48,029 nt of DNA from Candidatus Krumholzibacteriia bacterium (GCA_036351155.1 JAZBOO010000293.1:1-48029); one strand, 5' to 3'; numbered from the stretch's first letter, positions 8,063 to 39,840 are shown. The notes: generated from the letters alone by a model not told the origin. A program made the numbers and translations.

Positions 8063-8488
8063 GCAAGCCTCCATCCAGCAGGAAGAACTCCTGCCGGGTT
8101 GAGTTTCAACGGGTGCGGATTCGGGCGAAACCGACACGAAAAAACGGTTTTCCAAATGCTGGACACCTCACAAGCCAACTCGGCCAGGCACCCACCTTCG
8201 GACACAATACGCGCGACTTTTTAACTAATCGCTGACTGATTATATCAGATGACCTATACAATGGGGCGGCCTTTATCTTCACATTTCCGTGACACCTTCT
8301 GCTTTTTGCGGCCATAAAACCCTTATTCATACGGCTTTGTCACGAAAACGTTAGGATTTACCTGTAGAAAGCGGTCATGCCTTTTCGTTATACTCCTGAA
8401 CGGAACCGACCCCTGGATTGGGGGGAATTGCGGAGGCGCTTGAGATACCCAGTGGTGGCTGAGGCGGCCGCTTTTGAAAGGAAACATC

Positions 8489-10135
8489 ATGAAACGACTC
8501 CTCACCGTCCTGGTTTTCGCCTTGTTCTTGATTCCGGGAGGCTCCGCGCTGGCCGCCGACCTCCTGGTCCCGGCGCAATATACCACCATCCAGGCGGCCA
8601 TCGACGCCGCCCAGGTCGGGGACACCGTCCTGGTCTCCCCCGGCACCTACACGGACTGCACGCACCCCACCGAGGGTCCCGAATCCACCAACGCCTGCGT
8701 CATCATGAAGACCGGGGTGACATTGCGGGGTGACGGCCTGGCCACAGAGGTCATCATCGATGCCCAGTCCCTCGGTCGCGGCATCTTCATCGAGAACGTC
8801 AGCGATTGCGCCGTGGAGAACCTGACGGTGACCGGCGCCTATGCCGACATCTACGGGGCCGCCATCCTGGTGCGGCAGGTGGACAATACGGTGGAAATTT
8901 CCGATGTCCGGGTGGATCAGAACCTCGACGGGGGCCTCATCTGCATCAATGGGGCCAACCCGGTCATCACCGGCTGTATCATGTCCAACAACGTGGCCAA
9001 GCAGGGCGGCGGCCTGGCCATCGAAGAGAACAGCAGTCCCCTGGTCTCCGGTTGCCGGGTCACCGGAAACGAGGCCCCCTCGGGCGCCGGGATCTTCATC
9101 CGCAGCGGTTGCTCGCCCACCATCACCGAGACCACGGTCGACAACAACACCATCACCGCCGCTTACGGTAACGGCGGCGGCATCTGTGTACAGGACGCCA
9201 CACCCACGATCTCCTTCTGTACCATCCAGGCCAACGTCACCCTGGGCTACGGCGGCGGCGTGGCCTTTGTTTCCGGCGGCGGCGGTCTGATGAATGATTG
9301 CCTGGTCAACGGCAACGATGCCGCGGGCACCTACAGCCTGGGCGGCGGAGTGGCCACCAGCCAGAGCGCCCCCACGCTCCGCAACCTCACCATCACGAAC
9401 AATACCGCCACCGGATTCTTTGCCGAAGGTGGCGGCCTGGATATTTCCTTCACCCCCGCCTCCCTGGTCGAGGGTTGCACCATTGCCGACAACACGGGGA
9501 GCCCCAGTGGCCTGGCCGGAGGCGTCTCAGTGCAGTTCGGAGCGGACCCCGTCATCGACCGGTGCATCATTGCCGGATCGATCACCGGGCAGGGCCTGCT
9601 CTGCATGGGCGCCACTCCCGTGGTCAGCTGCACCAACATCTGGAACAACGCCGGGGGCGACGACCTGTGCGGCACCGACAACGGCGGCAATTTCTCGGCC
9701 GACCCCCTGTTCTGCGGCTCCGTCGAGCGCCCCTACAACCTGCAGGAGGGCAGTCCTTGTGCTCCCGGCAACCACCCGGACAGCCTCTGTGACGACCAGC
9801 TGATCGGATCCCTGAGTGCCGGTTGTGGCCCCAGCCCCGCTCCCCTGCCCCGGCCAGCCACCCTGGTGCTGGGCAATCAGCCCAACCCGTTCAACCCCCG
9901 CACCACCATTTACTTTAGCCTGTCCCAGGCAGGTCCGGCTCAGTTGAGGATCTTCGATCTGGCCGGCCGTCTGGTCACCACCCAGTCCTGGTCTGACCTG
10001 CCCGCCGATCAGCGGATCGAATTCCAGTGGAACGGTCAGGATCAACATGGACGTCAGGTCACCAGTGGTGTTTACTTCTATCGCCTTGACTCCCGCCAGC
10101 ACTCCATCAGTAAAAGGATGAGTTTGATACGATGA
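8489..10135 (+). CDS. Secreted right-handed beta-helix (Pmp-like GG[IL] repeats) protein with C-terminal FlgD-Ig/T9SS-like domain
   Basis: Signal peptide; VPAQYTTIQAAID...GDTVLVSPGTY; repeated N.A..GGG[ILV] coils; DPLFC...YNLQEGSPC; NQPNPFNPRTTIYFSL...GVYFYRL. Start at ATG 8489 after AAAGGA. Confidence 0.85.
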   Translation: MKRLLTVLVFALFLIPGGSALAADLLVPAQYTTIQAAIDAAQVGDTVLVSPGTYTDCTHPTEGPESTNACVIMKTGVTLRGDGLATEVIIDAQSLGRGIFIENVSDCAVENLTVTGAYADIYGAAILVRQVDNTVEISDVRVDQNLDGGLICINGANPVITGCIMSNNVAKQGGGLAIEENSSPLVSGCRVTGNEAPSGAGIFIRSGCSPTITETTVDNNTITAAYGNGGGICVQDATPTISFCTIQANVTLGYGGGVAFVSGGGGLMNDCLVNGNDAAGTYSLGGGVATSQSAPTLRNLTITNNTATGFFAEGGGLDISFTPASLVEGCTIADNTGSPSGLAGGVSVQFGADPVIDRCIIAGSITGQGLLCMGATPVVSCTNIWNNAGGDDLCGTDNGGNFSADPLFCGSVERPYNLQEGSPCAPGNHPDSLCDDQLIGSLSAGCGPSPAPLPRPATLVLGNQPNPFNPRTTIYFSLSQAGPAQLRIFDLAGRLVTTQSWSDLPADQRIEFQWNGQDQHGRQVTSGVYFYRLDSRQHSISKRMSLIR

Positions 10136-13100
10136 ACCGAAAAATGAGTGTCGCCCCGTCCCGCACGCGGTTCCTCATTCCGGTCGCCCTCGTGGCGGCC
10201 GGTTTTGTTGCCGCCGGATTGCTACCCCTGACCAGTTCCGCCACGGCTCAGGCCTCCGAACAGGTTGCTGGTCCCGATATATCCGTCCATCCCGAGGCCG
10301 CCCCCACCTGGGCTCTCGAGACAGGAGCGGACAAGACCCTGGTGACCATTCAGGATGCCGCCAGGGAGTCTACCTCCCGCGCCGCCACCGTTTATCTTCC
10401 CGGATCAGCCACCAACTTCACACTGGAGGTGGTCAGCGGTGGGCCGGCCAAGGTCACCGCTCCCCGGGGAATGCAGATTCAGCGGGGCGTGAAGGTGCTG
10501 CGTCTGCTGGTCGAAGAGGCCGGCCCCGGCCCCGTCACCGTGGCCGTCAGCCACAACGGGGACTGGGCGAGCCAGAACGAAGGAAAAGCGGGAAAGCTCT
10601 GGTCTCCGGCTCTTCACGGGCTTTCCCGTCCTCCTCTGGCTCTTGCCGACAAGGCCGCCGGTGGTGGTCCCGGATCGTACGTGATCGTGCACGGCCCGGC
10701 CTTCACCTCGGCCATGGCCCCTCTGGTGGAATGGAAAACCCGCAAGGGCTTCGATGTGACCACCATCAGCACCGGGGTGACCGGTTCCACGGCCGCCGGC
10801 ATCAAGGAATACCTGCAGAACGCCTATGACACCTGGGACAATCCCCCGGAGTACATCCTGCTCCTGGGCGATGTGGCCGACATTCCCACCTACAGCTTTT
10901 ACGGAAACCCCTCGGACCTGGACTACACCCTGCTGGATGGCGATGACTGGTTGCCCGACGCCCTGATTGGCCGGTTGCCGGTGGAGAACGACACCATGGC
11001 CCGGACGGTGATCAACAAGATCGTGGGCTACGAACGCTCTCCCTACCTGGCCGGCGAGGACGACTGGTTCACCCGCAGCATCATGGTGGGCGGAGTCGAG
11101 GGATCAGACACCCCTCCTCATACCGTGCGCTATTGTGGGCAGCAATTGACAAAGATCGGATTTGCGCCCGCCCAGACTTTCCTGCATCCTCCGCTACCCT
11201 CGAACATGTTCATTGCCAACATGTTCAACCCCGCCCTGGACAACGGGGCCAGCATCGTGGCCTACCGCGGCTGGGCCTATGGAACCAGCGGCTGGAGCGA
11301 TCCCCGCTATGAAGTCAACGACATGGGAGGCATGAACAACCAGGGCAAGCTGCCCGTGGTGATGAGCTTCGTGTGCCTGAACGGCGATTACACAGCCAGC
11401 AGCCCGTGCTTCGGCGAGGCCTTCCTGCGCCAGGGGCAGCCCGATCAGCCCAAGGGCGCGGTGGCCTTCATCGGCAATGGCGAGCACTGGTCCCATACCC
11501 GTTACAACGATGCCATGGCCATCAGTTTCTTCGAGCGCATCATCGACCCCGAGGTGACCAACCTGGGCAGTCTGGTCAATGCCGGCAAGATGCGCTATTA
11601 CGACTATTTTCCAGGAGAAGTGGATGCGGAAACCTTCGGCGAAGAGTCGGTAGAATTCTATTTCCACATCTACAACCTGCTGGGTGATCCCGAGCTCAAC
11701 TTCTGGAAGAGCACGCCTCGGCTCCTGAGCGTCAACCACTCCACCACCCTTGAAATCGGCACCGGTTTCCTGGAAGTGGAAGTGGATGAAGCTGACCTGC
11801 GCGGTCCCGTGGCCGGAGCGGTGGTCACCGCCGTGTCCGGCGGGGCCCTGGTGGGCCGGGCCGTGACAGACGACAGCGGCATCGCCTGGCTGTCCTTTCC
11901 CCCGGTGGCTGACGAGGCCTCCCTCGAGATCACCGTGACCGGAGCCGGCCTGGTGCCTTACGAGGGCACCGCAGGCACCATTTCCAGCGCGGCCCACGTG
12001 ACCGCCACGACCTTCGCGGTCGATGATGCCGCGGGGAACCAGGATGGCACGGCCAATCCGGGCGAGACCCTGGGCCTGATCCTGACAGTGGCCAACCACG
12101 GGACGGGCAATACCGGCCCCTTCACCATGGAGCTGGTCGATGTGGCCGGTCCAGCCACCCTGGGTGGCCAGACGGTCAACTTTGCCGACCTGGCTTCCGG
12201 CGGCACGGCCGAAGCCGGAACCGCCCTGGACATCGAGGTGCATGCCGGCGCTCGCGATGGTGATGTGATCAAGCTGATCGTCGAAGCTGAACGCAGCGGC
12301 GAGCAATTCGATCAGTCCCTCCTGCAGCTGGTGGTTGCTTCCCCCGACCTGCAGGTGGTGTCCTTGACGCCCGTGGCCTCCGGGCAAGCGGGCCCCGGGG
12401 AAACGGTGGACCTCGACTTGACCATGCATGCCGAGGGCTCCATCGGCACCGGCGGCGGAACCGTGGAACTGGAACTGGTCAATCCCGAGGGTGCCTCTCT
12501 CGTGTCCAGCCAGACCTCCTTTGGCGCCTGCGCGCCCGGCGCCACTGTCCAGAGCACCTCGCCCATCAGCTTGCAGATCGATGCCGATACGGCCACGGGG
12601 ACCAACCTGAGTTTCCTGGCCACCATCACCACGGCAGAGGGCTTCACCTTCCAGGCCACCTGCGGACTGGTGGTCGGTCCGGTTGATGTGGCCACCGTGT
12701 GTGGACCCGACAGTTACGGTTACTACGCCTACGACAGCGCGGACCTGGATTACCCGGCCAAGCGACCGGTGTACCAGTGGAACGAGATCTCCCCCACCTT
12801 TGGCGGCGAAGGCACGCGCCTGGACTTCCCGGTGGACAACGAGATCGTCACCGTCCAGGTGGACCTACCCTTCACCTTCACCTTCTACGGCGAAGATTAC
12901 AGCCGCATCCGGGTCAGTGACAACGGGTGGATCTCCTTCGATCTGGCCCCCCTGTTCAACTTCTACAACTGGACCATGCCGTCCGAGCACGGGAACAACG
13001 CCGTGATCGCCCCTTACTGGGAAAACCTGGTGCCCACCGGCGATGGCGGCAGCAACGGCATCGCGCCGGATGGCGTGTTCTATCACCACGATCCCGTGGC

Positions 13101-13971
13101 CGGAACCTTCACGGTGGAGTGGAGCCGTCTGCATCACTACAAGCCGCAGATCCTGGGCATGCAAACCTTCCAGGTGGTGCTTCTGGATCCGGCCAGTCAC
13201 CCCACCGCCAGCGGCGATGGTGAGATGCTGTTCTATTACCGCGATGTGACCAACAACGACTACGTCCGGAATTATGCCACCGTGGGTATCGAGAATGCCG
13301 ACGGCCTGATCGGAATGCAGCTCAGCTATTTCAGCATCAACGACCCGGGGCTGGCCCCCCTGCAACCCGGACTGGCCATCAGGGTGACCACCGAGTCCCC
13401 GGTCCGGGTGCCTCTGGTCCTGAATTCGCTGGCCGCCGAGCAGATCGGCAGCGACGTGGGCATGGCCTGGTCCCTGGACGACGAGCGGCCGATTCTCGGC
13501 TGGCATATCGATCAGGTGTCCCCCGAGGGCATCACCCGCTTGACCGAGCAGCCCCTGCCGGGAACGGCGCGTCACTGGACAGGCCCCGCTGCGGTGGCCA
13601 GGGGTGAATCGACCCGATTCCGGCTGACTGCCTTGCATCCCTACGGCACCACCAGTCAGCCCGGCGAAGTGGAGCTGGAAGGACAAACCGTCCTGGGTCT
13701 GGCCCTGCACCGCGCCAGCCCCAACCCGACGGCGGGACAGGCCAGCATCGCCTTTGCCTTGCCGGCCGATGCTCAGGCCCGGCTCCAGGTTTACGACACC
13801 GCCGGCCGCCTGGTCCGCACTCTCCTGGACGGACACACGTCCGCCGGTGAGGGCGTGCGCACCTGGGACGGACGAGATGACCGCGGCATGCCCGCCGCCG
13901 GCGGCGTGTACTTTTTCCGTCTGGAAACCCGGGGCCAAACATTGACCCGGAAGCTCATCCTGGTTCGCTAA
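10132..13971 (+). CDS. Second secreted gingipain-like C25 family protein with Ig-like, nidogen-like and FlgD-Ig/T9SS-like domains
   Basis: PLVEWKTRKGF, IKEYLQNAY, YILLLGD, DALIGRLPV, KIVGYE, FVCLNGDY, CFGEAFLR, YNLLGDPEL; GPDSYGYYAYD; C-terminus ASPNPT...GVYFFRL...RKLILVR; ATGA overlap with the upstream gene. Confidence 0.88.
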   Translation: MNRKMSVAPSRTRFLIPVALVAAGFVAAGLLPLTSSATAQASEQVAGPDISVHPEAAPTWALETGADKTLVTIQDAARESTSRAATVYLPGSATNFTLEVVSGGPAKVTAPRGMQIQRGVKVLRLLVEEAGPGPVTVAVSHNGDWASQNEGKAGKLWSPALHGLSRPPLALADKAAGGGPGSYVIVHGPAFTSAMAPLVEWKTRKGFDVTTISTGVTGSTAAGIKEYLQNAYDTWDNPPEYILLLGDVADIPTYSFYGNPSDLDYTLLDGDDWLPDALIGRLPVENDTMARTVINKIVGYERSPYLAGEDDWFTRSIMVGGVEGSDTPPHTVRYCGQQLTKIGFAPAQTFLHPPLPSNMFIANMFNPALDNGASIVAYRGWAYGTSGWSDPRYEVNDMGGMNNQGKLPVVMSFVCLNGDYTASSPCFGEAFLRQGQPDQPKGAVAFIGNGEHWSHTRYNDAMAISFFERIIDPEVTNLGSLVNAGKMRYYDYFPGEVDAETFGEESVEFYFHIYNLLGDPELNFWKSTPRLLSVNHSTTLEIGTGFLEVEVDEADLRGPVAGAVVTAVSGGALVGRAVTDDSGIAWLSFPPVADEASLEITVTGAGLVPYEGTAGTISSAAHVTATTFAVDDAAGNQDGTANPGETLGLILTVANHGTGNTGPFTMELVDVAGPATLGGQTVNFADLASGGTAEAGTALDIEVHAGARDGDVIKLIVEAERSGEQFDQSLLQLVVASPDLQVVSLTPVASGQAGPGETVDLDLTMHAEGSIGTGGGTVELELVNPEGASLVSSQTSFGACAPGATVQSTSPISLQIDADTATGTNLSFLATITTAEGFTFQATCGLVVGPVDVATVCGPDSYGYYAYDSADLDYPAKRPVYQWNEISPTFGGEGTRLDFPVDNEIVTVQVDLPFTFTFYGEDYSRIRVSDNGWISFDLAPLFNFYNWTMPSEHGNNAVIAPYWENLVPTGDGGSNGIAPDGVFYHHDPVAGTFTVEWSRLHHYKPQILGMQTFQVVLLDPASHPTASGDGEMLFYYRDVTNNDYVRNYATVGIENADGLIGMQLSYFSINDPGLAPLQPGLAIRVTTESPVRVPLVLNSLAAEQIGSDVGMAWSLDDERPILGWHIDQVSPEGITRLTEQPLPGTARHWTGPAAVARGESTRFRLTALHPYGTTSQPGEVELEGQTVLGLALHRASPNPTAGQASIAFALPADAQARLQVYDTAGRLVRTLLDGHTSAGEGVRTWDGRDDRGMPAAGGVYFFRLETRGQTLTRKLILVR

Positions 13972-14016
13972 AAGAACCGTGACCGGGGGCGGCCTGGCCG
14001 CCCCCTGCAAGGTGCC

Positions 14017-15195
14017 ATGTACCTGGTGATTTTCTTGTTGAGCCTGTTGACTGCCCTCGGAATGTGGGAGATGGGCCGGCATGTCCTGCACCGCCGCCGG
14101 ATTCCCGTGCGGGTGCACGTCAACGGCAGCCGGGGCAAATCCTCGGTGGCCCGCTTGATAGCCGCCGGCCTGCGGGCCGGTGGGTACAAGGTGGTAGGCA
14201 AGACCACAGGCAGCACCGCGGCGGTCATCCATACCGATGGCAGCGAAACCCCCATCCGTCGTCGAGGTGGACCCAACATCAAGGAACAGCTGCGCGTCAT
14301 ACGCCGGGCCACCCGCGAGGGATGTCAGGCCCTGGTTCTCGAGTGCATGGCCGTGCGCCCTGACCTGCAGAAGGTGTGTGAACATTCCATCGTCCGGGCC
14401 ACCCACGGCGTGATCACCAACGTGCGCCCCGATCACCTGGAAGTCATGGGACCCACCATGGACGACGTGGCCTCCAGCCTGGCCGGCACCGTCCCGCGCA
14501 AGGCCCACCTGTTCACAGCCGAAGATCACTATCATGATTTTCTGGCCCAGCGCGCCCGACGCGCCGGCTCCCGTTTCTCCCTGGCCACCGCAGCAGGGGT
14601 AGCCACCGAGGAAATGGCCGGTTTCGGGTACGTGGAATTTGCCGAGAATGTGAGTCTGGCTCTCGACGTCTGCACCTCCATCGGGGTTCCCCGCGAAAAG
14701 GCCCTGCAGGCGATGTACAAGGTCACACCCGATGTCGGCGCCTTGACCCGCTGGCGGGTCACTTCGGCCCATGCCGATCATCCCGGCACCATGACCTTCA
14801 TCAACGGCTTTGCCGCCAATGACCCCGAGAGTTATCTCCGGGTCTGGCGGCGCCTGGAACTGGCCGAGAGCACCGAGCGCGTGCTGATCCTGATGAACAT
14901 CCGTGGGGATCGCCAGCGCCGCAGCAAGGATCTGGCTCCGCTGATGGGCAAGGAACTGAAAGCGGACGGATACATCCTCATCGGTGAGGAAACCGCCCTG
15001 TTTGGTGACATGATCCGCCGCTCGGGGGTGGACCGCAGCGCCATCCACGACTGGCATGGTCTGTCGGCCGAGAATCTCTGGCTGCGTCTCTGTGAGCTGG
15101 GGCAGGGACAGGCCACCGTCTTTGGCATGGGTAACATCGCCGGGATCGGCAACCGCTTGCTGGACCATCTGCGTGACCGGAGGTTGGATCCTTGA
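14017..15195 (+). CDS. pgsB: Poly-gamma-glutamate synthase PgsB/CapB (Mur-ligase-like ATP-dependent amide ligase)
   Basis: N-terminal TM; RVHVNGSRGKSSVARLIAAGL, KTTG, PNIKEQ, VLECMAV, ITNVRPDHLEVMGPT, FINGFAANDPES, GMGNIAG motifs; adjacent to pgsC. Confidence 0.93.
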   Translation: MYLVIFLLSLLTALGMWEMGRHVLHRRRIPVRVHVNGSRGKSSVARLIAAGLRAGGYKVVGKTTGSTAAVIHTDGSETPIRRRGGPNIKEQLRVIRRATREGCQALVLECMAVRPDLQKVCEHSIVRATHGVITNVRPDHLEVMGPTMDDVASSLAGTVPRKAHLFTAEDHYHDFLAQRARRAGSRFSLATAAGVATEEMAGFGYVEFAENVSLALDVCTSIGVPREKALQAMYKVTPDVGALTRWRVTSAHADHPGTMTFINGFAANDPESYLRVWRRLELAESTERVLILMNIRGDRQRRSKDLAPLMGKELKADGYILIGEETALFGDMIRRSGVDRSAIHDWHGLSAENLWLRLCELGQGQATVFGMGNIAGIGNRLLDHLRDRRLDP

Positions 15196-15665
15196 TCTAT
15201 CAAAGCATTGGCCTGGGCCTGGTGGTCAGCCTCTTCTTCAGCGAGATCCTGGGTCTGGCCGCGGGCGGTCTGGTCGTCCCCGGCTACATCGCCCTGTACC
15301 TGGATCAGCCATTGCGCATCCTGGGGACCATCCTGGCGGCTCTGGTCACCTACGGCTTCGTGCGCCTGGTCGGGCGCTTCGTCCTCCTGTACGGAAGGCG
15401 CACCATGGTCTTTTCCGTGCTGGCCGGATTTCTTTTCGGTTACCTCACCCGGTATCTCCTGGTCTTCAACGCCACCCTGGATCTTGGCGTGGATGCCAGC
15501 GTGATCCAGTCCATCGGCTACATCATTCCCGGTCTCATCGCCTACTGGATGAGCCGGCAAGGCGTAGTGGAAACCCTGTGTACCATGATCATGGCGGCCT
15601 TCATTGTCCGCCTGGCCCTGGTTGTTGCCCACGGAGGAAAGCTCATTGAGCTGGCGGTTGGATAA
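15192..15665 (+). CDS. pgsC: Poly-gamma-glutamate biosynthesis membrane protein PgsC/CapC
   Basis: 157-aa hydrophobic protein: IGLGLVVSLFFSE..GLAAGGLVVPGYIAL, LYGRR, IGYIIPGLIA..M.RQGV; TTG start overlapping the pgsB stop. Confidence 0.93.
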   Translation: MIYQSIGLGLVVSLFFSEILGLAAGGLVVPGYIALYLDQPLRILGTILAALVTYGFVRLVGRFVLLYGRRTMVFSVLAGFLFGYLTRYLLVFNATLDLGVDASVIQSIGYIIPGLIAYWMSRQGVVETLCTMIMAAFIVRLALVVAHGGKLIELAVG

Positions 15666-17658
15666 CAGACGACGCTTCATCCTGCTGGTCCTGGCCAGCA
15701 TCGCGCTGCTCTTGCAGTGGGTGCTGGACAGCACCCGGACACCCACGCGTCAACGTGACCACGATCTGAAAATCGCCGCGGCGGAACAGGCTGAGCGGGC
15801 TTTTGCCGTGATCCGCGAATATCGTCGCATGGACGATTCACGCCTGGACCTGGTGAACGATCCCGCAGGCACGGGACTGGTGGGCCCCCAGTTCAGCCTG
15901 ATCACCAATGCGCGAGGCGATCTGGACGCCAAGCTGACCAGCTTGAATCCCAACTTTGCGGGACTGCTGGTGAAATTTTTCCGTGAAGCCGGACTGAACA
16001 AGGGCGACAAGGTGGCCGTGGCCGTCTCGGGCTCCTTTCCCGGCATCAACATCGGCCTCTATGCCGCCCTGGAGACCATGGAGCTGGACCCGGTGATCAT
16101 CACCTCGGTGGGCGCCTCCATGTGGGGGGCCAACAACCCGGAGTTCACCTGGCTGGACATGGAAACCCTTTTTCGGGAAAAGGGTGTCTTCAAGTTGCGG
16201 AGCGATGCCGCCACTTACGGCGGAGCCAACGACATGGGCCGGGGCCTGAGCCCCGATGGACGCCGTCTCATCCAGGAAGCCATCGACCGCAACGGCATTC
16301 CCCTGCTGGATTCGAAAAACATCCAGGACGCCATCGACCAGCGCCTGGCCTTCTTCATGGAGAATGCCCGTGGTCGCGCCTACCAGCTCTATGTGAACGT
16401 GGGCGGCGGGGTGGCCAGCATTGGCAGCACCCACAACCGTTTGCTTCTCCCCAAGGGGCTGAACTTCGATCTCCAGGAGCACAACTGGGCACGCAAGGGC
16501 AACCTCATCCAGTTCGCGGAAATGGGTGTTCCCACGGTCCACTTGCTGGGCATCACCGGCCTGGCCAGAGAATACGGTCTACCCATTTCTCCCGACTACC
16601 AGCCCCAACCGGGCGAAGGCGAGATCTTCATGCAGGACATGTACCGGCTGCCCCTGGCCTTCGGAATTTTCGTGACCTATTGCTTGCTGTGCCTGCTCGT
16701 TCTGGCCCCTGAAATCCGGCATGGACTGTTCGACAAGCTGACCCGCAGGCCACCCGTGGTGCCCCTGGCTCTGGCCCTGCTGTGCCTGGCCGGCTGGACG
16801 GGAGCCGGAGCAGCCCGGGCGGAAACCCGCTGGGCCTCCGTGTCTCCGCAGGGCGAGGCTCCGACCGTGTGCCTTCGGTCCTCGGGCCAGGAATTCCAGT
16901 ATCAACTCCTCGACACCGGAACCCTCTATCGCGTGAATGGACCACGGCCCATCAAGATCGTGGCCCGGTACATTTTCGCCGAAGGGGAAACCGGAGCACC
17001 CAGCTTCACCTTGCTGGCCCATGTCGACGGCGAGGAGATCCTGCGCAAGACCTTCCGCGCCCGGCCCCATGAAGGCGTCCAGGCCTGCTCCGGAGACCAG
17101 CTCGTCTCGGCCCTGCGGCGCGCACTGCTCAACGTGAGCAAGGGTCGGCACATCGTCGAGCTTTCCGCCGAATGCGATGGCCCTGGACAGGTCGCGGCCC
17201 GCATGTTCCGGGAGACACGCAAGAAGACGGCACCGCTGGTGAGCTTCCAGCCCCAGCAATACCATGAACTGGCCGAACTGCAGTTCGAAAGCGGAAACCA
17301 GTCGACCTACTACCGCTTCGAGGCGGGACATCCCCTGGTTTTCCGCCTCAATGGCCCCACCACCGCCAAGCTTTACACACGCCTGGATTTCGACCACACC
17401 ATGAACGGTGATCAGGAATACGGGCTGGAAGTCCTGCGCGACGGCAAGAGCTGGCGCACCTTTCGGTTCCACACCCGCGAGTTGAGCTCCGGTCTGTATC
17501 TCGACCGCCCCGACCTTTTGCCCGGCATCCGCAAGACCGTCACCCTCGAGGTGCCGGACGGCGCGCACTCCTTCGAGGTGCGCTGTCTGCATCCGGCCGC
17601 CTGCGGGGTGGCCGCCCAGATCCGCATCCCTGAAAAGGCCCTGGAGGTTCGTCCTTGA
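15646..17658 (+). CDS. pgsW: PgsW-like poly-gamma-glutamate system protein fused to an extra C-terminal periplasmic two-repeat module
   Basis: Start at TTG 15646 after GGAGG (MSWRLD...). Motifs DPAGTGLVG, GDLDAKLTSLNPNFA, SGSFPG, SVGASMWGANNP..TWLDME, YVNVGGGVASIG match my recollection of the PGA-system protein family that accompanies pgsBC. After two TM segments there are ~280 additional residues. Confidence 0.8.
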   Translation: MSWRLDNRRRFILLVLASIALLLQWVLDSTRTPTRQRDHDLKIAAAEQAERAFAVIREYRRMDDSRLDLVNDPAGTGLVGPQFSLITNARGDLDAKLTSLNPNFAGLLVKFFREAGLNKGDKVAVAVSGSFPGINIGLYAALETMELDPVIITSVGASMWGANNPEFTWLDMETLFREKGVFKLRSDAATYGGANDMGRGLSPDGRRLIQEAIDRNGIPLLDSKNIQDAIDQRLAFFMENARGRAYQLYVNVGGGVASIGSTHNRLLLPKGLNFDLQEHNWARKGNLIQFAEMGVPTVHLLGITGLAREYGLPISPDYQPQPGEGEIFMQDMYRLPLAFGIFVTYCLLCLLVLAPEIRHGLFDKLTRRPPVVPLALALLCLAGWTGAGAARAETRWASVSPQGEAPTVCLRSSGQEFQYQLLDTGTLYRVNGPRPIKIVARYIFAEGETGAPSFTLLAHVDGEEILRKTFRARPHEGVQACSGDQLVSALRRALLNVSKGRHIVELSAECDGPGQVAARMFRETRKKTAPLVSFQPQQYHELAELQFESGNQSTYYRFEAGHPLVFRLNGPTTAKLYTRLDFDHTMNGDQEYGLEVLRDGKSWRTFRFHTRELSSGLYLDRPDLLPGIRKTVTLEVPDGAHSFEVRCLHPAACGVAAQIRIPEKALEVRP

Positions 17659-19205
17659 TTCTCAGACGCTTATGGCCAGGCATCCTGGTGGTCCTTTCCC
17701 TGTGGGCCGGCACCGTGATGGGTGCCGAAACCCTGCGCCCCCTGGGGTCGCAGGACACCGTCCCGGTGGGAAGGTCAGCCAAGCCCTACCTCGTCATGCA
17801 GGACGGGCCGCTGGTCTTCCCGGTGACGGGACCCGGCTCGGTGACCATTTACACCCGGGTGCCCATGGCCGGCCCGGAAGCCCCCACTCGCAAGGGCTCC
17901 TTGCAGGTGGCGGGGTTGGCGCCGGAACCGCTGGTCCTTCCCCTGGAGTTCCAGGTCACACGCTCCAGCCGTTACGGCGATGCGCGAGAAGGTGTGCCCA
18001 GTGGGGGCCAGAAGACCACCCTCGAGGTGCCGGCCGGCAACCATCGGCTGGAGTTGTCCGGTCAGATCGTCGGCGGAGGTCCGGCCCTGGTCATCGTCTA
18101 CTATGACGGTCCTCCTCAGCCCTCCACCCCCGGCTTGATGCCCCGCGAAGTGACCGTCAAGACACCCCAGGGTCTCTCTGCCGGACCCAAGAAATCGGCC
18201 TGGAGTTTTCGCGGAAGTGCCGGCTTTGACCTCATGTACAACGACAACATCCTGACCAACAGCGACGACTACCTGGACGAGTTCCAGAGCGGCCGGTCGC
18301 CCCATAAATTTCAGCACAACACCGATGACGATTTTGTCTTTGCTCCCGAGTTCGATATCGAGGCCCGCAACAGCAAGCTGCTCCCCTGGGGACAAACGCG
18401 GTTCAAGTTCAAGTTCAAGCACTGGCTGTACACCAACAACGCCATCAAGACCAACACCGACTTTCATTTTTACGGGCGTCAGTACTTCGGCAAGAAACGC
18501 AGCCTCGAGGGGTACTTCCACTTCGCCCCGGAGCAGTACATCCGAGATTTGACCGACCGGTCCCCCCTGGCCGATCCCGGCTCTTCCGTCATCTGGCAAG
18601 CCTTCAATTTTCAGCGCAACGTGTGGAACCTTACCTGGCGGCAGACCATCAACAAGAAATTATCGGTGAAGTTCATCTACGAAAGGAACTATCGCTACTA
18701 CAACCAGCCCTTCATGGAAAACGACATCAAGGCCTGGGAGGTCCGCGGCAATGCCACCTGGAAATTCAACCGCACCTACACCATGAACCTGGACTACAGC
18801 TTCGAGGATGGCAACGGGCGCGGCCTGGACGAGGTGGGCGAAGATATCCTGACCTCGGACAACAGTGATCCGTCGTACGAACGGGATCTTTACCGCATTG
18901 GCCTGACCATGAAGCACAAGGCGCTGAAGAAGTTCATCAGCCAGATGGATTTCAGCTTCCTGTTCATGGACTACTACTACACCACGACCAAGAACCTGGT
19001 CCAGGACCCCTATCATGCCGGGCGTCGGGACACCTACTACAAGGCCACTGCCGAAGTGCGCCGCAAGCTGACCAAAACCATCTCCGCCAAGGCGGCCGTG
19101 CGCCGTACAGAGCGGGTTGTCTACTCCCCCTGGGAAGGGGACATCACCACGGACAAGGATTTCACCCAGTGGCTCTACTGGGTCAACCTGAGTTACCGGT
19201 TCTGA
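17655..19205 (+). CDS. Outer-membrane beta-barrel protein with N-terminal periplasmic beta-sandwich domain
   Basis: Signal peptide; Pro-rich linker; then alternating aromatic amphipathic strands (YNDNIL, FKFKFKHWLY, FIYERNYRYY), ending WLYWVNLSYRF with a terminal Phe (BAM signal). TTGA overlap with pgsW. Confidence 0.75.
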   Translation: MILRRLWPGILVVLSLWAGTVMGAETLRPLGSQDTVPVGRSAKPYLVMQDGPLVFPVTGPGSVTIYTRVPMAGPEAPTRKGSLQVAGLAPEPLVLPLEFQVTRSSRYGDAREGVPSGGQKTTLEVPAGNHRLELSGQIVGGGPALVIVYYDGPPQPSTPGLMPREVTVKTPQGLSAGPKKSAWSFRGSAGFDLMYNDNILTNSDDYLDEFQSGRSPHKFQHNTDDDFVFAPEFDIEARNSKLLPWGQTRFKFKFKHWLYTNNAIKTNTDFHFYGRQYFGKKRSLEGYFHFAPEQYIRDLTDRSPLADPGSSVIWQAFNFQRNVWNLTWRQTINKKLSVKFIYERNYRYYNQPFMENDIKAWEVRGNATWKFNRTYTMNLDYSFEDGNGRGLDEVGEDILTSDNSDPSYERDLYRIGLTMKHKALKKFISQMDFSFLFMDYYYTTTKNLVQDPYHAGRRDTYYKATAEVRRKLTKTISAKAAVRRTERVVYSPWEGDITTDKDFTQWLYWVNLSYRF

Positions 19206-19214
19206 GGAGAGACC

Positions 19215-21680
19215 ATGGCCTTCCAACGACGTTTGATCATGATCATTGCCGCCTGCTCCAGCCTGGCGCTGCTTTTTCCGATCGGGTGTGCCGAACAGGA
19301 TCTGTATGAACCGCCCGGAGCCCCCTTCCAGCGGGTGGGCCGGGTGCCCTTGCCCAGCCAGAACGAGGGGGTGGCCGCCCTGGGTCGCCACGCTTTTGTG
19401 GCCGGCGGCCAGGCCGGATTGCATTCCATCGACTTCACGAACCCCGCACACCCGGTGCTGCTGCAGACCATCAACACCCAGAAGTACTCAGAAAGCGTGG
19501 AAGTGGTGCGCAGCTTCGTGGGCCAGACCCTCCAGGACATCGCTCTGGTAGTCGAAGGCACCGAGGGTATCACCAGCTACGACATCACCGTGCCGGACGG
19601 CATGACCAGCTTCGAAACCGGCACCACCGCGGTGTTCGGCAACCGGGTGGCCGTGACCGAGTCGGACGATCCCGAGGTGCCCTACGTGGTCTTCCTGGCC
19701 GAAAGCTGGAAGGGTGTGCGTATTTTCGAATCCATTCCCGCCCAGCCCGGCATCCTGGCCTACAACGGTGTGTTTTCCGGCACCAACGGCTACGCCGAGG
19801 GTGTGGCCGTCAAGGATGGTTACGCCTACGTGGCCGACGATCAGATGGGCCTGGCGGTGCTGGATGCCCGCGTGCTGGACCTCGGCAGCGTTCAGCTGGT
19901 CAACTGGTGCGACAGCCCGGGCGAGGCCCTGGATGTGGACCTCTCCGGTGACTACGCTTACGTGGCGGATGGGGACTACGGCCTGGCCGTCTTCCGTATC
20001 GATGGCGGGGAAGCCCCCATCCACGTGGCTCAGCTGGAGCTGGAAGGCGACTGCCGTGCCGTGGAAGTGCGCGATGGACTGGCCGTCCTGTGTGCCCAGG
20101 GCGCGGGGGTTCATTTCGTAGATGTGAGCAACCCGAGGAATCCGGTTTTCCTGGGCCGCATCATCACCGAGTACGCCATGGACCTGACCATCACCCGCGA
20201 GGGCTTCATTCTGGTCGCCGACCGGGACGAGGGCTTGATCATCATGGAGGGCAATTACCCCTTCACCGACGACACCCCCCCGCTGACGGTCAACAGCTTG
20301 CAAGCCACACCCTACGCCCTCGGATCGGTGGAGCTGTCCTGGGTGATGACCGGAGACGACCGCCTTGAAGGCCTGGCCTCCGGGCTGGAAATCCGCATGG
20401 CCGAGACTCCCATCACCTCCCCGGCTGAATGGGATGCCGCCACCCCCTTGACCGACTTGCCGGTGCCTGAAATGGCCGGATCCACCATGTCCCACGTGGT
20501 GACCGGATTGACCGGTGGGAACACATATCATTTCGCCATGATCGTGTCCGATGACGCCGGTCTGACCACCGCCCTGAGCAACTCCGCGGTGGCCACCGCC
20601 GGGGAGGGCATCCTTCTGCTGGACCCCACGCTGGACATCCAGGGCGGCACTGATCAGGATCTCTACACCTACGAGGTCACCTACATCTTCTCGACCGCTC
20701 CCGACGTGCACGAGGTGGTCATCGACGGAACCGGACATCCCATGAGCCCCGTGGACAGCACACGGGACGGGGAAGTCCTGTACCGCTTCCAGACCACCCT
20801 GCCGCACGGACAGCACGACTATTTCTTCCGCTTCGGGGTGGACGATCCCTCCGTTCCCGATTTCATCACCGATCAGCAAGTGGGCCCCACGGTGGGCGCC
20901 CTGGCGTTCACCATGGGCAGTCCCGACCTGGACAATGAGCTCCATCCGGATTACGAGCCGGGTCGCGAAAGTGACGAGTGGCAGCACACCGTGGTCCTGT
21001 CGGACAGCCTGGTGGCCGGTCTGTTCGAGGTCACCCAGGCCGACTGGGCTGACCTGAGCCTGGCCAACCCCTCCCACTTCGTGGGCGATGACCTGCCCGT
21101 GGAAACGGTGACCTGGATGCAGGCCGTGCAGTACTGCAATCTCCTTTCGGCCGAAGATGGTTTGACGGCCGTTTACCAGGTCAATGGTCCCGAGGTCTCC
21201 TGGAACCGGGAAGCCGACGGCTGGCGTCTGCCCACCGAGGCCGAATGGGAATGGCTGGCCCGCGGAGGATCGACCACCGCCTTTGCCGCCGGCCCCATCA
21301 CCGCCCAGGTGTGCAACCTGGACCCCGTGCTGGTCAACCTGGGCTGGTACTGCGGCAGTGATTACTCCCCGGATATGCCGGGCACCCGGAATGTGGGCCT
21401 GCTGAATGCCAATGATCGTGGCCATTTCGACCTGCACGGCAACGTCTGGGAATGGTGCTGGGACTGGTATGGCGATTACCGCCAGCTGGACACCGATGGA
21501 GACGGCGTTGTCCTTGATCCGGTGGGGCCGGTCACGGGCAACGAGCGGGTCATCCGCGGAGGCAGCTGGTATTCCGGCAGCGAAGCTTGCCGCAGCGCCA
21601 ACCGGGGCTTCCGATTCCCCGATTCGGCCGATGACCTGGTGGGATTCCGCGTCGTGCGCACCATTTTCACGGACAGGTAG
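19215..21680 (+). CDS. Lipoprotein with LVIVD-repeat propeller, FN3-like domain and C-terminal SUMF1/FGE-sulfatase-type domain
   Basis: Lipobox FPIG-C; repeats GYAYVADDQMGLAVLD and DYAYVADGDYGLAVFR; FTMGSP...EVTQ...PVETVTW..A..YCN..S..DGL...WRLPTEAEWEWLARGG...FDLHGNVWEWCWDWY...RVIRGGSW...GFRVVR. Confidence 0.85.
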   Translation: MAFQRRLIMIIAACSSLALLFPIGCAEQDLYEPPGAPFQRVGRVPLPSQNEGVAALGRHAFVAGGQAGLHSIDFTNPAHPVLLQTINTQKYSESVEVVRSFVGQTLQDIALVVEGTEGITSYDITVPDGMTSFETGTTAVFGNRVAVTESDDPEVPYVVFLAESWKGVRIFESIPAQPGILAYNGVFSGTNGYAEGVAVKDGYAYVADDQMGLAVLDARVLDLGSVQLVNWCDSPGEALDVDLSGDYAYVADGDYGLAVFRIDGGEAPIHVAQLELEGDCRAVEVRDGLAVLCAQGAGVHFVDVSNPRNPVFLGRIITEYAMDLTITREGFILVADRDEGLIIMEGNYPFTDDTPPLTVNSLQATPYALGSVELSWVMTGDDRLEGLASGLEIRMAETPITSPAEWDAATPLTDLPVPEMAGSTMSHVVTGLTGGNTYHFAMIVSDDAGLTTALSNSAVATAGEGILLLDPTLDIQGGTDQDLYTYEVTYIFSTAPDVHEVVIDGTGHPMSPVDSTRDGEVLYRFQTTLPHGQHDYFFRFGVDDPSVPDFITDQQVGPTVGALAFTMGSPDLDNELHPDYEPGRESDEWQHTVVLSDSLVAGLFEVTQADWADLSLANPSHFVGDDLPVETVTWMQAVQYCNLLSAEDGLTAVYQVNGPEVSWNREADGWRLPTEAEWEWLARGGSTTAFAAGPITAQVCNLDPVLVNLGWYCGSDYSPDMPGTRNVGLLNANDRGHFDLHGNVWEWCWDWYGDYRQLDTDGDGVVLDPVGPVTGNERVIRGGSWYSGSEACRSANRGFRFPDSADDLVGFRVVRTIFTDR

Positions 21681-21687
21681 GGAAAAC

Positions 21688-22782
21688 ATGGCTCAGACCA
21701 GCCGCTTCCACTTCATCGACGAGTTCCGGGGCCTCATCGGCGTGATGATGGCCCTGGGACACAGCAACTACTACTTCAACAGCGCCTGGTTGACCCTGGA
21801 TCCCCTCGATCCATTTTTCGACAACACCCCCCAGTTTCTGCTGCGCTACATGGGGTACCTGTGCGCACCCGGCTTCCTGATGATGAACGGCGCCATGGTG
21901 CACTATGTGTTCTGGCGCCGGTTGCGCAACGGAGAAGCTCTGGGCAAGATCCGCTGGGGATTCATTCAGCGGGGACTGTTCCTCATCGCCGTTCAGCTGA
22001 TCTGGGTCAACGCCTCCTGGGGAGGGTTCACCCGCCTGCGGCTGGGGCATTTCGGGATCATCGCCACCATCGGCACCAGCATGATCCTCCTGGTCTGGAT
22101 GGCCGGCTGGAACTGGAAGTACCGCGCCCTGGTGGCCCTGGCTCTCTTCGTGGGCCACCCTTTCCTGCTCAGCATACCCTACGACCACGGCTCCTGGACC
22201 CACTACCTCATGCAGTTCTTCGTGGACGCCGGAGACTTCAACAAGTATCCGATCATCCCCTGGTTCGCCCTGGCCACCGTGGGCAGCGTGATGGCGCATT
22301 TCTGGTTCGATGGGTGGAAAGACCCCGACGAGCGCGGGCGCAACAGCATGATCGTCGGACTGGTGCTGCTGGCCATCGCCTGGGTTCTGCGGTTCGGCCA
22401 GGGCTTCGGCAACATCTTCGCCTGGGACACCTTCTTCAGCTACTCGTTCTTCCTGGTCCAGAAATATCCCCCCAGCCTGGTCCACCAGTTCTGGTTCTCC
22501 GGCTCGGTCATTTTCCTGGTGGGACTGTTCAGCGTGATCGATGCACGGGTGCCCATTTTGCGGCCTCTGGCGAATATCGGCCGGGTGCCGCTGTTCTTCT
22601 ATGCGGTGCACATCCCACTGCTGGCCATTTTTTCCAAGCGGCTGGGTTTTTTCTACCACGAAAGCGCGGTGATGGGTTCACTCATCGGGTGGGTCGCCCT
22701 GCTGATCGTGATGTACCCTCTGGCCCTGTGGTTCGGTGGGGTCAAGAGAAAGTCGCGCGCCTGGATCATTCGAATGATCTAA
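21688..22782 (+). CDS. Multi-pass membrane acyltransferase-like protein (DUF1624 / HGSNAT catalytic-domain-like)
   Basis: Start at ATG 21688, 7 nt after the upstream stop; IDEFRGLIGVMMALGH, CAPGF, IQRGLFLI, YPIIPWFAL, KYPPSL, GRVPLFFYAVHIPL motifs; about 9-10 TM segments. Confidence 0.75.
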   Translation: MAQTSRFHFIDEFRGLIGVMMALGHSNYYFNSAWLTLDPLDPFFDNTPQFLLRYMGYLCAPGFLMMNGAMVHYVFWRRLRNGEALGKIRWGFIQRGLFLIAVQLIWVNASWGGFTRLRLGHFGIIATIGTSMILLVWMAGWNWKYRALVALALFVGHPFLLSIPYDHGSWTHYLMQFFVDAGDFNKYPIIPWFALATVGSVMAHFWFDGWKDPDERGRNSMIVGLVLLAIAWVLRFGQGFGNIFAWDTFFSYSFFLVQKYPPSLVHQFWFSGSVIFLVGLFSVIDARVPILRPLANIGRVPLFFYAVHIPLLAIFSKRLGFFYHESAVMGSLIGWVALLIVMYPLALWFGGVKRKSRAWIIRMI

Positions 22783-23816
22783 TGATCAGTCTTGCGTGAG
22801 TACCTGGCGTTCATGTCCTGCAGACGCTTGACGATCTCCGCCAGATCCTCGGTGGCCTTTTCCAGGCCCGCCTTGCTATGCTGGTCCGAAGATGCGACCG
22901 ACCGCGCGGGAGCCAGGATTTTTTCCGGCTCCCGTGCCGTTTTTACCGGCCCGGGAACCGCGGACCCGACGGCCCCCTCCACCTTCTGGTAGTAGGTGGC
23001 CCGCCCCGATCGAATCAGGGAGAAGCCCGTGCTCCCCTCGGGCAAGCTTTCGCTGCTTCCCACGAACAACACCCCGCCTTTTTCCAGGGCGCCGTGGGCC
23101 TTGCGCAGCACTTCTCTCTTGAAATCATCGGAAAAATAGATGAGCACGTAGCGGGTCAAGATGATGTCGAAGTTCCCCATCATCACGAAGGAATCCTGCA
23201 GATTGAACTTGCGGAACACCACGGGGTCACGGATTTCCCGATTGACCTCGAAGTCGTTTCCTGCCGGGCTGAAATACTTGCCGCGATACCCTTCAGGGAG
23301 ACCGCGCGACATGGCCATGGAGCCGTATTTCCCCGCCTTGGCCTGGGCCAGGGCCTTGTCCGAATAATCGGTAGCCAGGATGTCCAGCTGCCCGGGCTCC
23401 AAGGTCGGGTTCGTCCTGGCCGCTTCCAGGAAGGTCATCACCAGGGAGTAAGGTTCCTGTCCCGTGGAACAGGCGGCGCTCCAGATCCGGATCTTCTTTC
23501 TTTTTCCCTGCTGGATTTCCGCCGCATAGGCCGGCAGCAGGATGTCCCGAAACACATCGAAGGGCAAGCTGTCCCGAAACCAGAGAGTTTCGTTGGTGGT
23601 CATGGCGTCCAGCACCTTGGCCTTGAGACTGGCCGAACGACCCGCCAGCAGGACTTCATGCAGAGCGCTGAAATCCTCGATGCCCTCGCTGCGCATGATC
23701 TCCCGCAAGCGGGTCTCCACCAGGTAAACCTTGTCCGTGGCCAGACTGATGCCGGTCTCCCGGGCGATGAAATCCCTCAGGAGGTCGAACTCCCGGGTGT
23801 TGATGGCCACCGTCAT
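22779..23816 (-). CDS. cheR: Chemotaxis methyltransferase CheR
   Basis: MTTNETLWFRD, IRIWSAACSTGQEPYS, ILATD, FDIILTRYVLIYF, LFVGSSES. Confidence 0.95.
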   Translation of the reverse strand: MTVAINTREFDLLRDFIARETGISLATDKVYLVETRLREIMRSEGIEDFSALHEVLLAGRSASLKAKVLDAMTTNETLWFRDSLPFDVFRDILLPAYAAEIQQGKRKKIRIWSAACSTGQEPYSLVMTFLEAARTNPTLEPGQLDILATDYSDKALAQAKAGKYGSMAMSRGLPEGYRGKYFSPAGNDFEVNREIRDPVVFRKFNLQDSFVMMGNFDIILTRYVLIYFSDDFKREVLRKAHGALEKGGVLFVGSSESLPEGSTGFSLIRSGRATYYQKVEGAVGSAVPGPVKTAREPEKILAPARSVASSDQHSKAGLEKATEDLAEIVKRLQDMNARYSRKTDH

Positions 23817-24970: not shown

Positions 24971-25000
24971 GCATCCTTGGTGCAACCCCGCAGGGTCGCT

Positions 25001-26773: not shown

Positions 26774-26832
26774 GATGACCTTTCCTTTTCTCGTCCCTCT
26801 CTCCAGGGACAGTCAACTCTGCTTGACCTTGT

Positions 26833-30232: not shown

Positions 30233-30316
30233 GCTGGCTCCCACCTTTCCCTCGCGCTGCGGACACCGAACGGCACACTGCCACCCTGTCCAGGCTATCT
30301 CTACTCCTCGGCCCAG

Positions 30317-39044: not shown

Positions 39045-39187
39045 TCATATGGATTTTCCACGGGGATTTATTTGTATTTCCAGAAAAAAAAGCTTTTCAG
39101 ACGGTGCCATTTCCGGTAATATCTTCAATGGAGACCAAAAACAGCCCTCGCTCACACACATGAAACCACTTCTTTTGGGGGACCATC

Positions 39188-39781: not shown

Positions 39782-39794
39782 ATTTTGGTCCCTC

Positions 39795-39840
39795 AAAAAC
39801 CGGCCGGTCCCTTCGGGGATGCGGCCGGTTTTTTTATTTT
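39795..39840 (+). terminator. Rho-independent terminator
   Basis: AAAAACCGGCCG-gtccc-TTCG-gggat-g-CGGCCGGTTTTTTT: GC-rich hairpin followed by a U tract, just after the 39781 stop. Confidence 0.9.

Follow-up and report, generated by a model that had tools for sequence, protein, structure and literature searches.

Poly-gamma-glutamate (PGA) is a capsule, biofilm and industrial polymer, and to our knowledge work on its synthesis has been confined almost entirely to monoderm Bacillus and related bacteria. No account of the route of PGA across the periplasm and outer membrane of a two-membrane cell was found in the open-access literature. Exopolysaccharides, by comparison, are exported by synthase-dependent systems such as those for alginate (Alg8/44-AlgK-AlgE, with AlgG and AlgI/J/F), cellulose (BcsA/B/C), PNAG (PgaABCD) and Pel (PelB/C), in which a tetratricopeptide-repeat (TPR) periplasmic scaffold is joined to, or partners, a barrel of 16-18 strands. 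Here, a gene block centred on the PGA synthase genes pgsB and pgsC was analysed in DNA of Candidatus Krumholzibacteriia bacterium (GCA_036351155.1, JAZBOO010000293.1:1-48029). The window is the whole stretch of 48,029 nucleotides, that is, an entire 48-kb contig from a metagenome-assembled genome of 4.19 Mb in 405 contigs, with a completeness of 97.6%. The results suggest, with a probability of roughly 0.6, that the proteins of the block form a trans-envelope machine, which would synthesise PGA at the inner membrane and export it through a dedicated outer-membrane channel.

The open reading frame (ORF) listing revealed eight genes at 8489-22782, all on the plus strand and all overlapping or nearly abutting. 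Profile searches placed them in the order g1 (beta-helix protein), g2 (C25 protein), pgsB, pgsC, g5 (PgsW fusion), g6 (barrel), g7 (lipoprotein) and g8 (DUF1624 protein), as summarized in Table 1. The g1/g2 junction is an ATGA overlap at 10132, g2 and pgsB are separated by 45 nt (13972-14016), pgsB and pgsC overlap in TTGA at 15192, pgsC and g5 overlap by 20 nt at 15646, where GGAGGA precedes the TTG start of g5, and g5 and g6 overlap in TTGA at 17655; g6 is separated from g7 by 9 nt, and g7 from g8 by 7 nt. Alternative starts are found for g1 (8474/8489), g5 (15604/15646) and g8 (21406/21688). This arrangement agrees in gene order, orientation and junctions with a preliminary description of the locus, which had been made from the sequence alone. 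That description had also stated that capA and capD are missing from the block, and a Pfam scan of the eight proteins and of 24 other ORFs of the window likewise detected no CapA (PGA_cap) gene and no gene of the gamma-glutamyltransferase (GGT) family.

The synthase genes were assigned with curated models. PgsB matched TIGR04012 over model positions 2-380 of 380 with 409.7 bits (equivalog cut-off 222.7), and PgsC matched TIGR04011 with 123.8 bits (equivalog cut-off 96.45); pgsB is single-copy in the host genome. It is well founded by this family membership that PgsB and PgsC would polymerise glutamate and extrude the chain. The protein encoded next to them, g5, matched TIGR04332 ('poly-gamma-glutamate system protein') with 313.4 bits against a cut-off of 100, the match covering residues 27-331 of the 684-aa ORF that starts at 15604 (about residues 13-317 from the 15646 start). 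No description of the TIGR04332 family or of this block was found in the open-access literature, and 'pgsW' did not occur as a gene name among the matches listed there.

The remainder of g5 proved to be a different protein. Its PgsW part comprises a transmembrane helix (residues 7-29) and a periplasmic alpha/beta domain, followed by hydrophobic helices at about residues 332-359 and 370-390; the latter, the third hydrophobic helix of g5, is a relic signal peptide of the fused partner. In many relatives PgsW is free-standing (approximately 375 aa) and the partner is a separate gene of approximately 300 aa with its own signal peptide, as in loci L024, L037, L040 and L043, among others. The fused form of approximately 670 aa occurs in several genera (for example in L014-L020, L023, L032, L049 and L053). 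The 'extended pgsW' of the preliminary description is therefore correct as to the PgsW family, but its extension is the fusion of PgsW with an otherwise separate protein that bears a signal peptide. The predicted topology agrees with a trans-envelope machine, in that basic residues flank the cytoplasmic sides and the conserved Cys pairs belong to the periplasmic modules. A second, more divergent pgsB-pgsC-pgsW copy was observed in genome G105, which is of the same family as the host (contig C27, locus L027), with 35-48% identity and no barrel module; the full cluster of that genome lies on another contig.

Table 1. Features of the PGA gene block and its flanks (positions in the window; pI, isoelectric point; T9SS, type IX secretion system; pLDDT, predicted local distance difference test score)
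Feature	Position	Strand	Description
Giant C25-family protein	2894..8155	-	1753 aa; Propeptide_C25, Peptidase_C25, CarboxypepD_reg, T9SS C-terminal sorting domain
Sigma-70-like promoter match	8365..8394	+	about 95 nt upstream of g1; only match in 7800-23200
g1, right-handed beta-helix protein	8489..10135	+	548 aa, pI 4.35; signal peptide, T9SS type A C-terminal sorting domain
g2, C25 (gingipain-fold) protein	10132..13971	+	1279 aa, pI 4.5; T9SS C-terminal sorting domain
GC-rich hairpin	13985..14005	+	g2-pgsB gap; 9-10 bp stem, no T-run after it
pgsB	14017..15195	+	PGA synthase ligase subunit, N-terminal membrane anchor; TIGR04012
pgsC	15192..15665	+	synthase membrane subunit; TIGR04011, Pfam Caps_synth_CapC
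g5, N-terminal part, PgsW-type	15646..16821	+	TIGR04332; model pLDDT 89.8
g5, C-terminal part, periplasmic tandem jelly-roll	16822..17658	+	two homologous modules of about 125 aa
g6, outer-membrane protein	17655..19205	+	516 aa, pI 9.3; signal peptide, jelly-roll 25-151, barrel 183-515, ends LSYRF
g7, lipoprotein	19215..21680	+	821 aa, pI 4.1, predicted lipidation at Cys25; LVIVD beta-propeller region, middle region, C-terminal FGE-sulfatase-fold domain
g8, polytopic membrane acyltransferase	21688..22782	+	364 aa; HGSNAT_cat/DUF1624

The predicted structure of g5 contains an N-terminal helix, the alpha/beta domain, the membrane helices and two jelly rolls. The two jelly-roll modules (residues 393-526 and 527-666, with conserved Cys pairs 409/481 and 647/653) are homologous to each other (hhalign probability 98.2%, E 5.8e-14), and the N-terminal domain of the barrel protein g6 is a third copy, with hhalign probabilities of 97.3% and 96.4% against the two g5 repeats. 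Neither the g5 jelly rolls nor the g6 N-terminal domain matched a Pfam family at E<=5. The best structural matches of the g5 jelly rolls were carbohydrate-binding modules (CBM51, CBM36 and CBM35; Z 8.3-9.3), and the cellulose synthase subunit BcsB (5eiy_B) was also among the g5 matches, with Z 9.2 but a root-mean-square deviation (rmsd) of 20. Fold searches with the 670-aa model gave match lists filled by jelly rolls, a search with the PgsW alpha/beta domain restricted to named Atlas clusters gave no match, and a sequence search of g5 against the PDB gave a single chance-level match (E 0.79). An Atlas search with the jelly-roll part returned unnamed clusters only, in which the few known taxa, WOR-3 and Fidelibacterota, provide a lead. 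Barrel orthologues of approximately 370-470 aa in L019, L025, L026, L031, L033 and related loci, from several genera, lack the N-terminal jelly-roll module, and this module is therefore either dispensable or supplied by a separate periplasmic protein.

The g6 protein matched no Pfam or NCBIfam family. Its model (pLDDT 85.1) consists of a beta-sandwich and a 14-stranded barrel, and with the signal peptide, the C-terminal Phe and a match list made up mostly of outer-membrane barrels it confirms the earlier call of an outer-membrane beta-barrel. The best structural match of the barrel was CymA (Z 24.9, rmsd 3.4, 289 residues aligned), and OmpG was also matched (Z 20.6, rmsd 3.1, 239 aligned); the Foldseek TM-scores on these targets were 0.59-0.67 and the sequence identity was 10-12%. 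The exopolysaccharide channels PelB (Z 14.3), BcsC (13.8) and PgaA (13.0) stood lower in the list. A search of the PDB sequences with the barrel profile gave no barrel or porin relative, only four chance-level matches (E 0.38-0.65). The putative lumen face, assigned by strand alternation from the sequence and not from coordinates, carries 23 Lys/Arg residues against 15 Asp/Glu. It includes a ladder of R249, K251, K253 and K255, positions that are basic in 12-15 of 16 sequences; R275, R329 and R487 are invariant in the barrel alignment.

The conservation of the block was examined in genomes whose phylum labels are those of the record titles, namely Krumholzibacteriota for the phylum of the host and Eisenbacteria for a second phylum. 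PgsB was over the cut-off in 69 of 208 species genomes of the own phylum, and 40 PgsB loci of this phylum were searched with the proteins of the window. All eight genes were found in the same order and orientation in 28 of them, with identities down to 29-60%; seven are cut by a contig end and hold every gene that fits, and in the remaining five this search revealed pgsB-pgsC-pgsW only. In one of these five, L045 from another family of the class, profiles detected a jelly-roll gene and a divergent barrel as well. Starting from the barrel, the profile identified 62 loci in the species-genome collection, and the lipoprotein gene directly follows the barrel gene in 61 of them. The same loci contain pgsB in 47 cases, are cut on that side in 12, and in three cases PgsB lies on another contig of the genome. 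Counted by genome, 69 of the 208 contain PgsB, 67 the barrel and 65 both; the two genomes with the barrel only are 72% and 91% complete. The DUF1624 orthologue gave 65 strong matches, one per genome (in two pieces in G167), and all but one of these (G163) were in genomes showing PgsB, the barrel or both.

The same genes were found in the second phylum in another arrangement. The order in the Eisenbacteria-titled loci is beta-helix, C25, barrel, lipoprotein, DUF1624, pgsB, pgsC, pgsW and jelly-roll, and the gene content has thus been kept through rearrangement. PgsB was found in 59 genomes of a sample of 201, and 55 of these 59 had a barrel match, which in 43 lies within 12 kb on the same contig. 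Since related genomes are not independent, these counts describe a pattern and are not a test. The statement that the flanking genes are syntenic with pgsBCW thus holds across two phyla and survives a change of gene order, and the objection that the genes might not be syntenic elsewhere fails for the same reason.

The lipoprotein g7 has a Cys residue directly after the signal peptide in all 28 orthologues, which bears out its assignment as a lipoprotein. The FN3 label given to it in the preliminary description was not recovered, because the middle region (residues 361-592, nt 20295-20990) had no Pfam match at E<=5. Its C-terminal domain scored 113.1 bits with the Pfam model FGE-sulfatase (FGE, formylglycine-generating enzyme). 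The best PDB sequence match of g7 was the Treponema denticola variable protein 2y3c (E 1.9e-26), followed by FGEs and by PorK/GldK at about 1e-12. The g8 protein belongs to HGSNAT_cat/DUF1624 with 41.9 bits (gathering score 22) and has at least six hydrophobic segments; a PDB sequence search gave no match. Its orthologues are among the best conserved proteins of the block (56-80% identity). Enzymes of the DUF1624 family transfer acyl groups from cytoplasmic acyl-CoA to an acceptor across the membrane, and the sole amine of PGA is its N-terminus.

The two genes at the start of the block encode secreted proteins. The g1 protein contains a Pfam Beta_helix domain and a TIGR04183 sorting domain (30.4 bits, cut-off 23), and its PDB sequence search gave no relative. 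The g2 protein contains Peptidase_C25 (181.9 bits, gathering score 23) and a TIGR04183 sorting domain with 33.1 bits against the same cut-off of 23. The host genome encodes SprA (483 bits summed, cut-off 200) and PorU (499 bits, cut-off 420) of the T9SS, and the C-terminal sorting-domain part of the PorU model had over 40 other matches in it. With a sorting domain over the cut-off in both proteins and T9SS machinery in the genome, g1 and g2 fit T9SS cargo. By curated models the T9SS looks partial (contigs C99 and C203). The PorV-like gene beside porU remained below the cut-off (94.7 against 250 bits), and no GldK/PorK was over the cut-off in the genome, where the best matches were FGE-fold domains only, one of them that of g7.

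The C25 domain of g2 was aligned with the structure of RgpB (1cvr, E 1.4e-29), in which we take His211 and Cys244 to be the catalytic residues. Cys415 of g2 aligns with the catalytic Cys of gingipains and is conserved in 34 of 34 orthologues. The position of the catalytic His is occupied by Trp381 in the motif YRGWAYG, with Trp in all 34 orthologues, and the C25 domain has no invariant His among them that could complete a Cys-His dyad. Because of the Trp at the His position and the lack of an invariant His, a canonical Cys-His protease or transpeptidase is unlikely, though another mechanism is possible. A tblastn comparison of the g2 C25 domain with the PorU loci of the same genome gave no match at E<=1e-3.

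A paralogue of g2 is encoded divergently upstream of the block, at 2894-8155 on the minus strand. Its catalytic Cys also aligns with that of gingipains, and its catalytic-His position is Tyr. A search with its N-terminal 450 aa was positive for 32 of the 40 PgsB loci and for 41 of the 62 barrel loci. Matches longer than 300 aa map to the opposite strand, immediately upstream of the beta-helix gene, in the Eisenbacteria-titled loci L101, L104-L107, L110 and L111 too; shorter matches map to the C25 gene of the cluster itself. Judged by these positions, the divergent gene belongs to the conserved block, outside the coordinates that the preliminary description had set for it. The beta-helix and C25 genes are not present everywhere. 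Locus L115 (21.6 kb) contains the rest of the block with no C25 or beta-helix match, and the five-gene core of L045 is likewise without them; the beta-helix and C25 genes are accessories.

The preliminary description had named capA or capD elsewhere in the genome as a possible alternative source of export and anchoring. Such genes exist in part, but unlinked to the block. Two canonical GGT genes lie on contigs C284 and C19, and the sole PGA_cap domain of the genome belongs to a 929-aa protein on contig C282 (L003:190-2979, minus strand) that also has PKD and T9SS sorting domains. This protein was considered as the missing PgsA and rejected, being T9SS cargo with a PKD domain and not a PgsA-like subunit. 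Its PKD and T9SS sorting domains mark it as an enzyme for secretion, not as a subunit of the synthase; it might act on extracellular PGA.

Transcription signals were searched for in the region of the block. A scan for the sigma-70 consensus gave one match in 7800-23200, against 2.7 expected, and terminator-like sites were at chance level (13 against 10.0 +/- 3.4 expected). The tight gene junctions and the lone promoter-like site ahead of g1 are in keeping with a common machine. The 45-nt gap between g2 and pgsB folds with a minimum free energy of -26.4 kcal/mol. In 34 valid loci, with L027 (not orthologous) and L036 left out, this gap has at least 40 nt and a strong hairpin in 17 (L014, L016, L017, L024, L026, L028-L030, L032, L037-L039, L041, L043, L044, L049 and L051) and measures 5-34 nt in the other 17; the hairpin sequence is not conserved among the loci. 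Since half of the loci have the short gap, the junction is not a fixed break. The hairpin could be an attenuator or an element of mRNA processing or stability through which the secreted proteins and the synthase are expressed separately, and may modulate expression. None of the listed sequencing runs that contain this DNA is recorded as RNA, and one metatranscriptome run and two runs not recorded as RNA gave no RNA contigs on 8000-23000.

The block is bordered upstream by the divergent C25 gene and downstream by the convergent cheR (22779-23816, minus strand), which overlaps the g8 stop by 4 nt on the opposite strand. The cheR gene belongs to a complete chemotaxis cluster (22779-30244, minus strand) that converges on the end of the block and contains cheR, cheB, a gene for a methyl-accepting chemotaxis protein with a Tll0287-like sensor domain, cheW and a cheA-cheW-receiver hybrid. 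Farther downstream, four minus-strand ORFs of 200-315 aa at 39152-42552 had no Pfam match, and three of them (40096-42552) overlap a plus-strand gene at 40132-42681 that encodes an 849-aa protein with PDZ, GAF and SpoIIE phosphatase domains. These three are probably artefacts of high G+C content, as are many long antisense ORFs inside the cluster. Rfam (gathering thresholds) and ARAGORN gave no match in the window.

Family membership, conserved synteny, the PgsW fusion, the common jelly-roll module and the predicted folds are the observations from which we infer the functional steps below and, with them, the completeness of the pathway and the surface display of its product that the preliminary description had claimed. 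The roles of PgsB, as the ATP-dependent amide ligase on the cytoplasmic side, and of PgsC, as its partner in the membrane, are well founded by their families. The PgsW-type protein, with anchoring helices on either side of a periplasmic domain, would replace PgsA/CapA. The tandem jelly-roll protein and the homologous module of the barrel protein may act as polymer-binding guides across the periplasm, in which case the carbohydrate-binding domains of BcsB would be their counterpart. The 14-stranded barrel is the putative exit pore, and the conserved Arg/Lys ladder on its presumed lumen face would suit a polyanion. The lipoprotein g7 would sit at the outer membrane with the barrel, and the g8 enzyme may modify the polymer or its acceptor. 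Secretion by the T9SS would bring the beta-helix protein and both C25-fold proteins out of the cell, where these lineage-specific accessories would bind or trim the surface polymer. As the C25 domains are without the catalytic His, binding of the polymer is as likely as its cleavage.

Several observations weigh against export through a dedicated channel. CymA and OmpG are uptake channels, and a fold shared with them therefore indicates no direction of transport. The count of lumen residues comes from strand alternation only, and the putative lumen also contains 15 acidic residues. The CBM matches of the jelly rolls are middling (Z 8-9) and near the background of the search tool. The lipoprotein is very acidic (net charge -80) and hence not an obvious polyanion binder. 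As a hairpin separates g2 from pgsB in half of the loci, g1 and g2 may be expressed separately. Four of the 69 own-phylum genomes with PgsB lack a detectable barrel, although one of these is 59% complete and three have a divergent PgsB, and four of the 59 in the second phylum also lack one. A further 21 genomes of the second phylum show mostly weak barrel matches and no PgsB over the cut-off (18 none, three partial). Finally, the two unlinked GGT genes could process PGA.

An alternative to export is that PGA is made while the barrel takes up or recycles glutamate, or gamma-glutamyl oligomers set free by the secreted enzymes and GGT, or that the module remodels the envelope for a periplasmic or loosely held polymer. 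The passive uptake channels at the top of the barrel's match list are in keeping with this, as are the two periplasmic-type GGT genes and the secreted hydrolase-like folds (beta-helix and C25) of the block. This is nevertheless unlikely, though not far-fetched, given that the barrel protein shares a module with the PgsW-fused protein and that its gene directly follows pgsBCW and the jelly-roll gene even in the five-gene L045. The near-complete co-occurrence of barrel and PgsB in two phyla argues in the same direction, because a porin that takes up a common nutrient should be distributed more widely. The preliminary description had instead proposed that C25 transpeptidases replace CapD and anchor PGA covalently, with the beta-helix protein trimming it and the acyltransferase adding a lipid anchor. 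The substitution of Trp for His in 34 of 34 g2 orthologues, the lack of an invariant His and the loci without C25 genes (L115 and L045) did not support a C25 substitute for CapD. The Tyr in the upstream paralogue, the lack of tblastn similarity to the genome's PorU at E<=1e-3 and the lack of a known acceptor also speak against covalent anchoring. Accordingly, this version is quite unlikely, even if synteny with the block in both phyla extends to the beta-helix gene and both C25 genes, all 34 orthologues keep the catalytic Cys, and the T9SS, which this genome uses, has in PorU a transpeptidating sortase of the same peptidase family by NCBIfam naming.

The product itself might differ from plain PGA, being a gamma-linked polyamide that is modified or of another kind, or PGA assembled on a lipid or glycan primer, with g7 and g8 as biosynthetic rather than export components. 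A decoration step would explain why the five-gene core of other lineages is without g7 and g8, and the strong conservation of DUF1624, its near restriction to block-carrying genomes and the replacement of PgsA/CapA by a different protein are consistent with it. However, PgsB and PgsC are well over their equivalog cut-offs, and the FGE-fold domain of g7 is closest to a non-enzymatic Treponema surface protein and also resembles the structural PorK; little weight is given to this possibility. It is scarcely credible that the neighbours are linked to pgsBCW only by shared genome ancestry, hitch-hiking without a common function. Most loci do come from one phylum, and their genomes are related and not independent. 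Against this, the gene content is kept under reordering in the second phylum, PgsW is fused to the jelly-roll protein, which shares its module with the barrel protein, and the genes agree in their presence and absence across the 208 and 201 genomes.

The export of PGA through a dedicated channel can be extended to a joint hypothesis, which is put forward tentatively and is unlikely to hold in its entirety, that bacteria of the FCB group build a PGA surface coat with two cooperating machines, a dedicated exporter and the T9SS. The exporter would consist of PgsBC, PgsW, three jelly-roll modules bridging the periplasm and a basic 14-stranded pore, and the polymer would leave with its N-terminus first. 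The DUF1624 enzyme would acylate the leading amine, either as a cap against exo-acting GGT or as a tie to the outer membrane. The T9SS, in turn, would deliver the gingipain-fold proteins without catalytic His and the beta-helix protein, which would hold or shape the polymer at the surface. If true, polyamide secretion would gain a new class of system, and the C25 fold a new use.

Irrespective of that hypothesis, the block names a candidate for each step of PGA export, namely a replacement of PgsA, a new family of periplasmic binding modules, a small basic barrel, a partner lipoprotein and a dedicated acyltransferase. Because these parts travel together in two phyla, the question of export is testable by heterologous expression, and the block could improve the production of secreted PGA in Gram-negative hosts. 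It also links a polymer exporter to T9SS cargo and reveals a conserved gingipain-fold family without the catalytic His.

Compared with known systems, g2 resembles gingipains and other T9SS cargo in its C25 domain, its aligned catalytic Cys and its type A sorting domain, and differs from gingipains in the replacement of the catalytic His by Trp (by Tyr in the upstream paralogue). The barrel protein differs from CymA and OmpG in its added N-terminal jelly-roll and in its genetic context, which is an operon for polymer synthesis and not one for the uptake of sugars. In outline the block is like the synthase-dependent exopolysaccharide systems, with an inner-membrane synthase, a CBM-like periplasmic subunit, an outer-membrane barrel, a lipoprotein, an acyltransferase and a beta-helix protein. 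Unlike in those systems, the polymer is a polyamide, the barrel has 14 strands and not 16-18, and two or three members of the block are exported by the T9SS; the parts have no sequence homology to those systems, and Pfam finds neither TPR nor cyclic di-GMP receptor domains in the eight proteins of the block. The block thus works like these systems but is not one of them, as the lack of homology and of TPR and the 14-stranded barrel indicate.

The closest relationship is to the PgsBCA(E)/CapBCADE systems of Bacillus, with which the block shares PgsB and PgsC orthologues over equivalog cut-offs. As in PgsBCA, there is a third membrane-anchored subunit, most of which lies beyond the cytoplasmic membrane; for PgsA, a largely periplasmic location is reported on expression in E. 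coli (PMC7490850). Unlike the monoderm PgsBCAE/CapBCADE, the block has neither PgsA/CapA nor CapD of the GGT family, and its third subunit is the TIGR04332 protein. The intergenic spaces of at most 45 nt leave no room for a small gene like that of CapE/PgsE, for which no model was searched. The host, in contrast to Bacillus, has an outer membrane, and the block adds the jelly-roll protein, the barrel, the lipoprotein, the acyltransferase and the T9SS cargo. At its centre stands the pgsB-pgsC-TIGR04332 cassette, which also occurs alone, for example in L027 (the second copy of G105) and in L046-L048. In contrast to this bare cassette, the TIGR04332 protein is fused here to the jelly-roll protein, and 9-10 genes make up the conserved block around and including the cassette.

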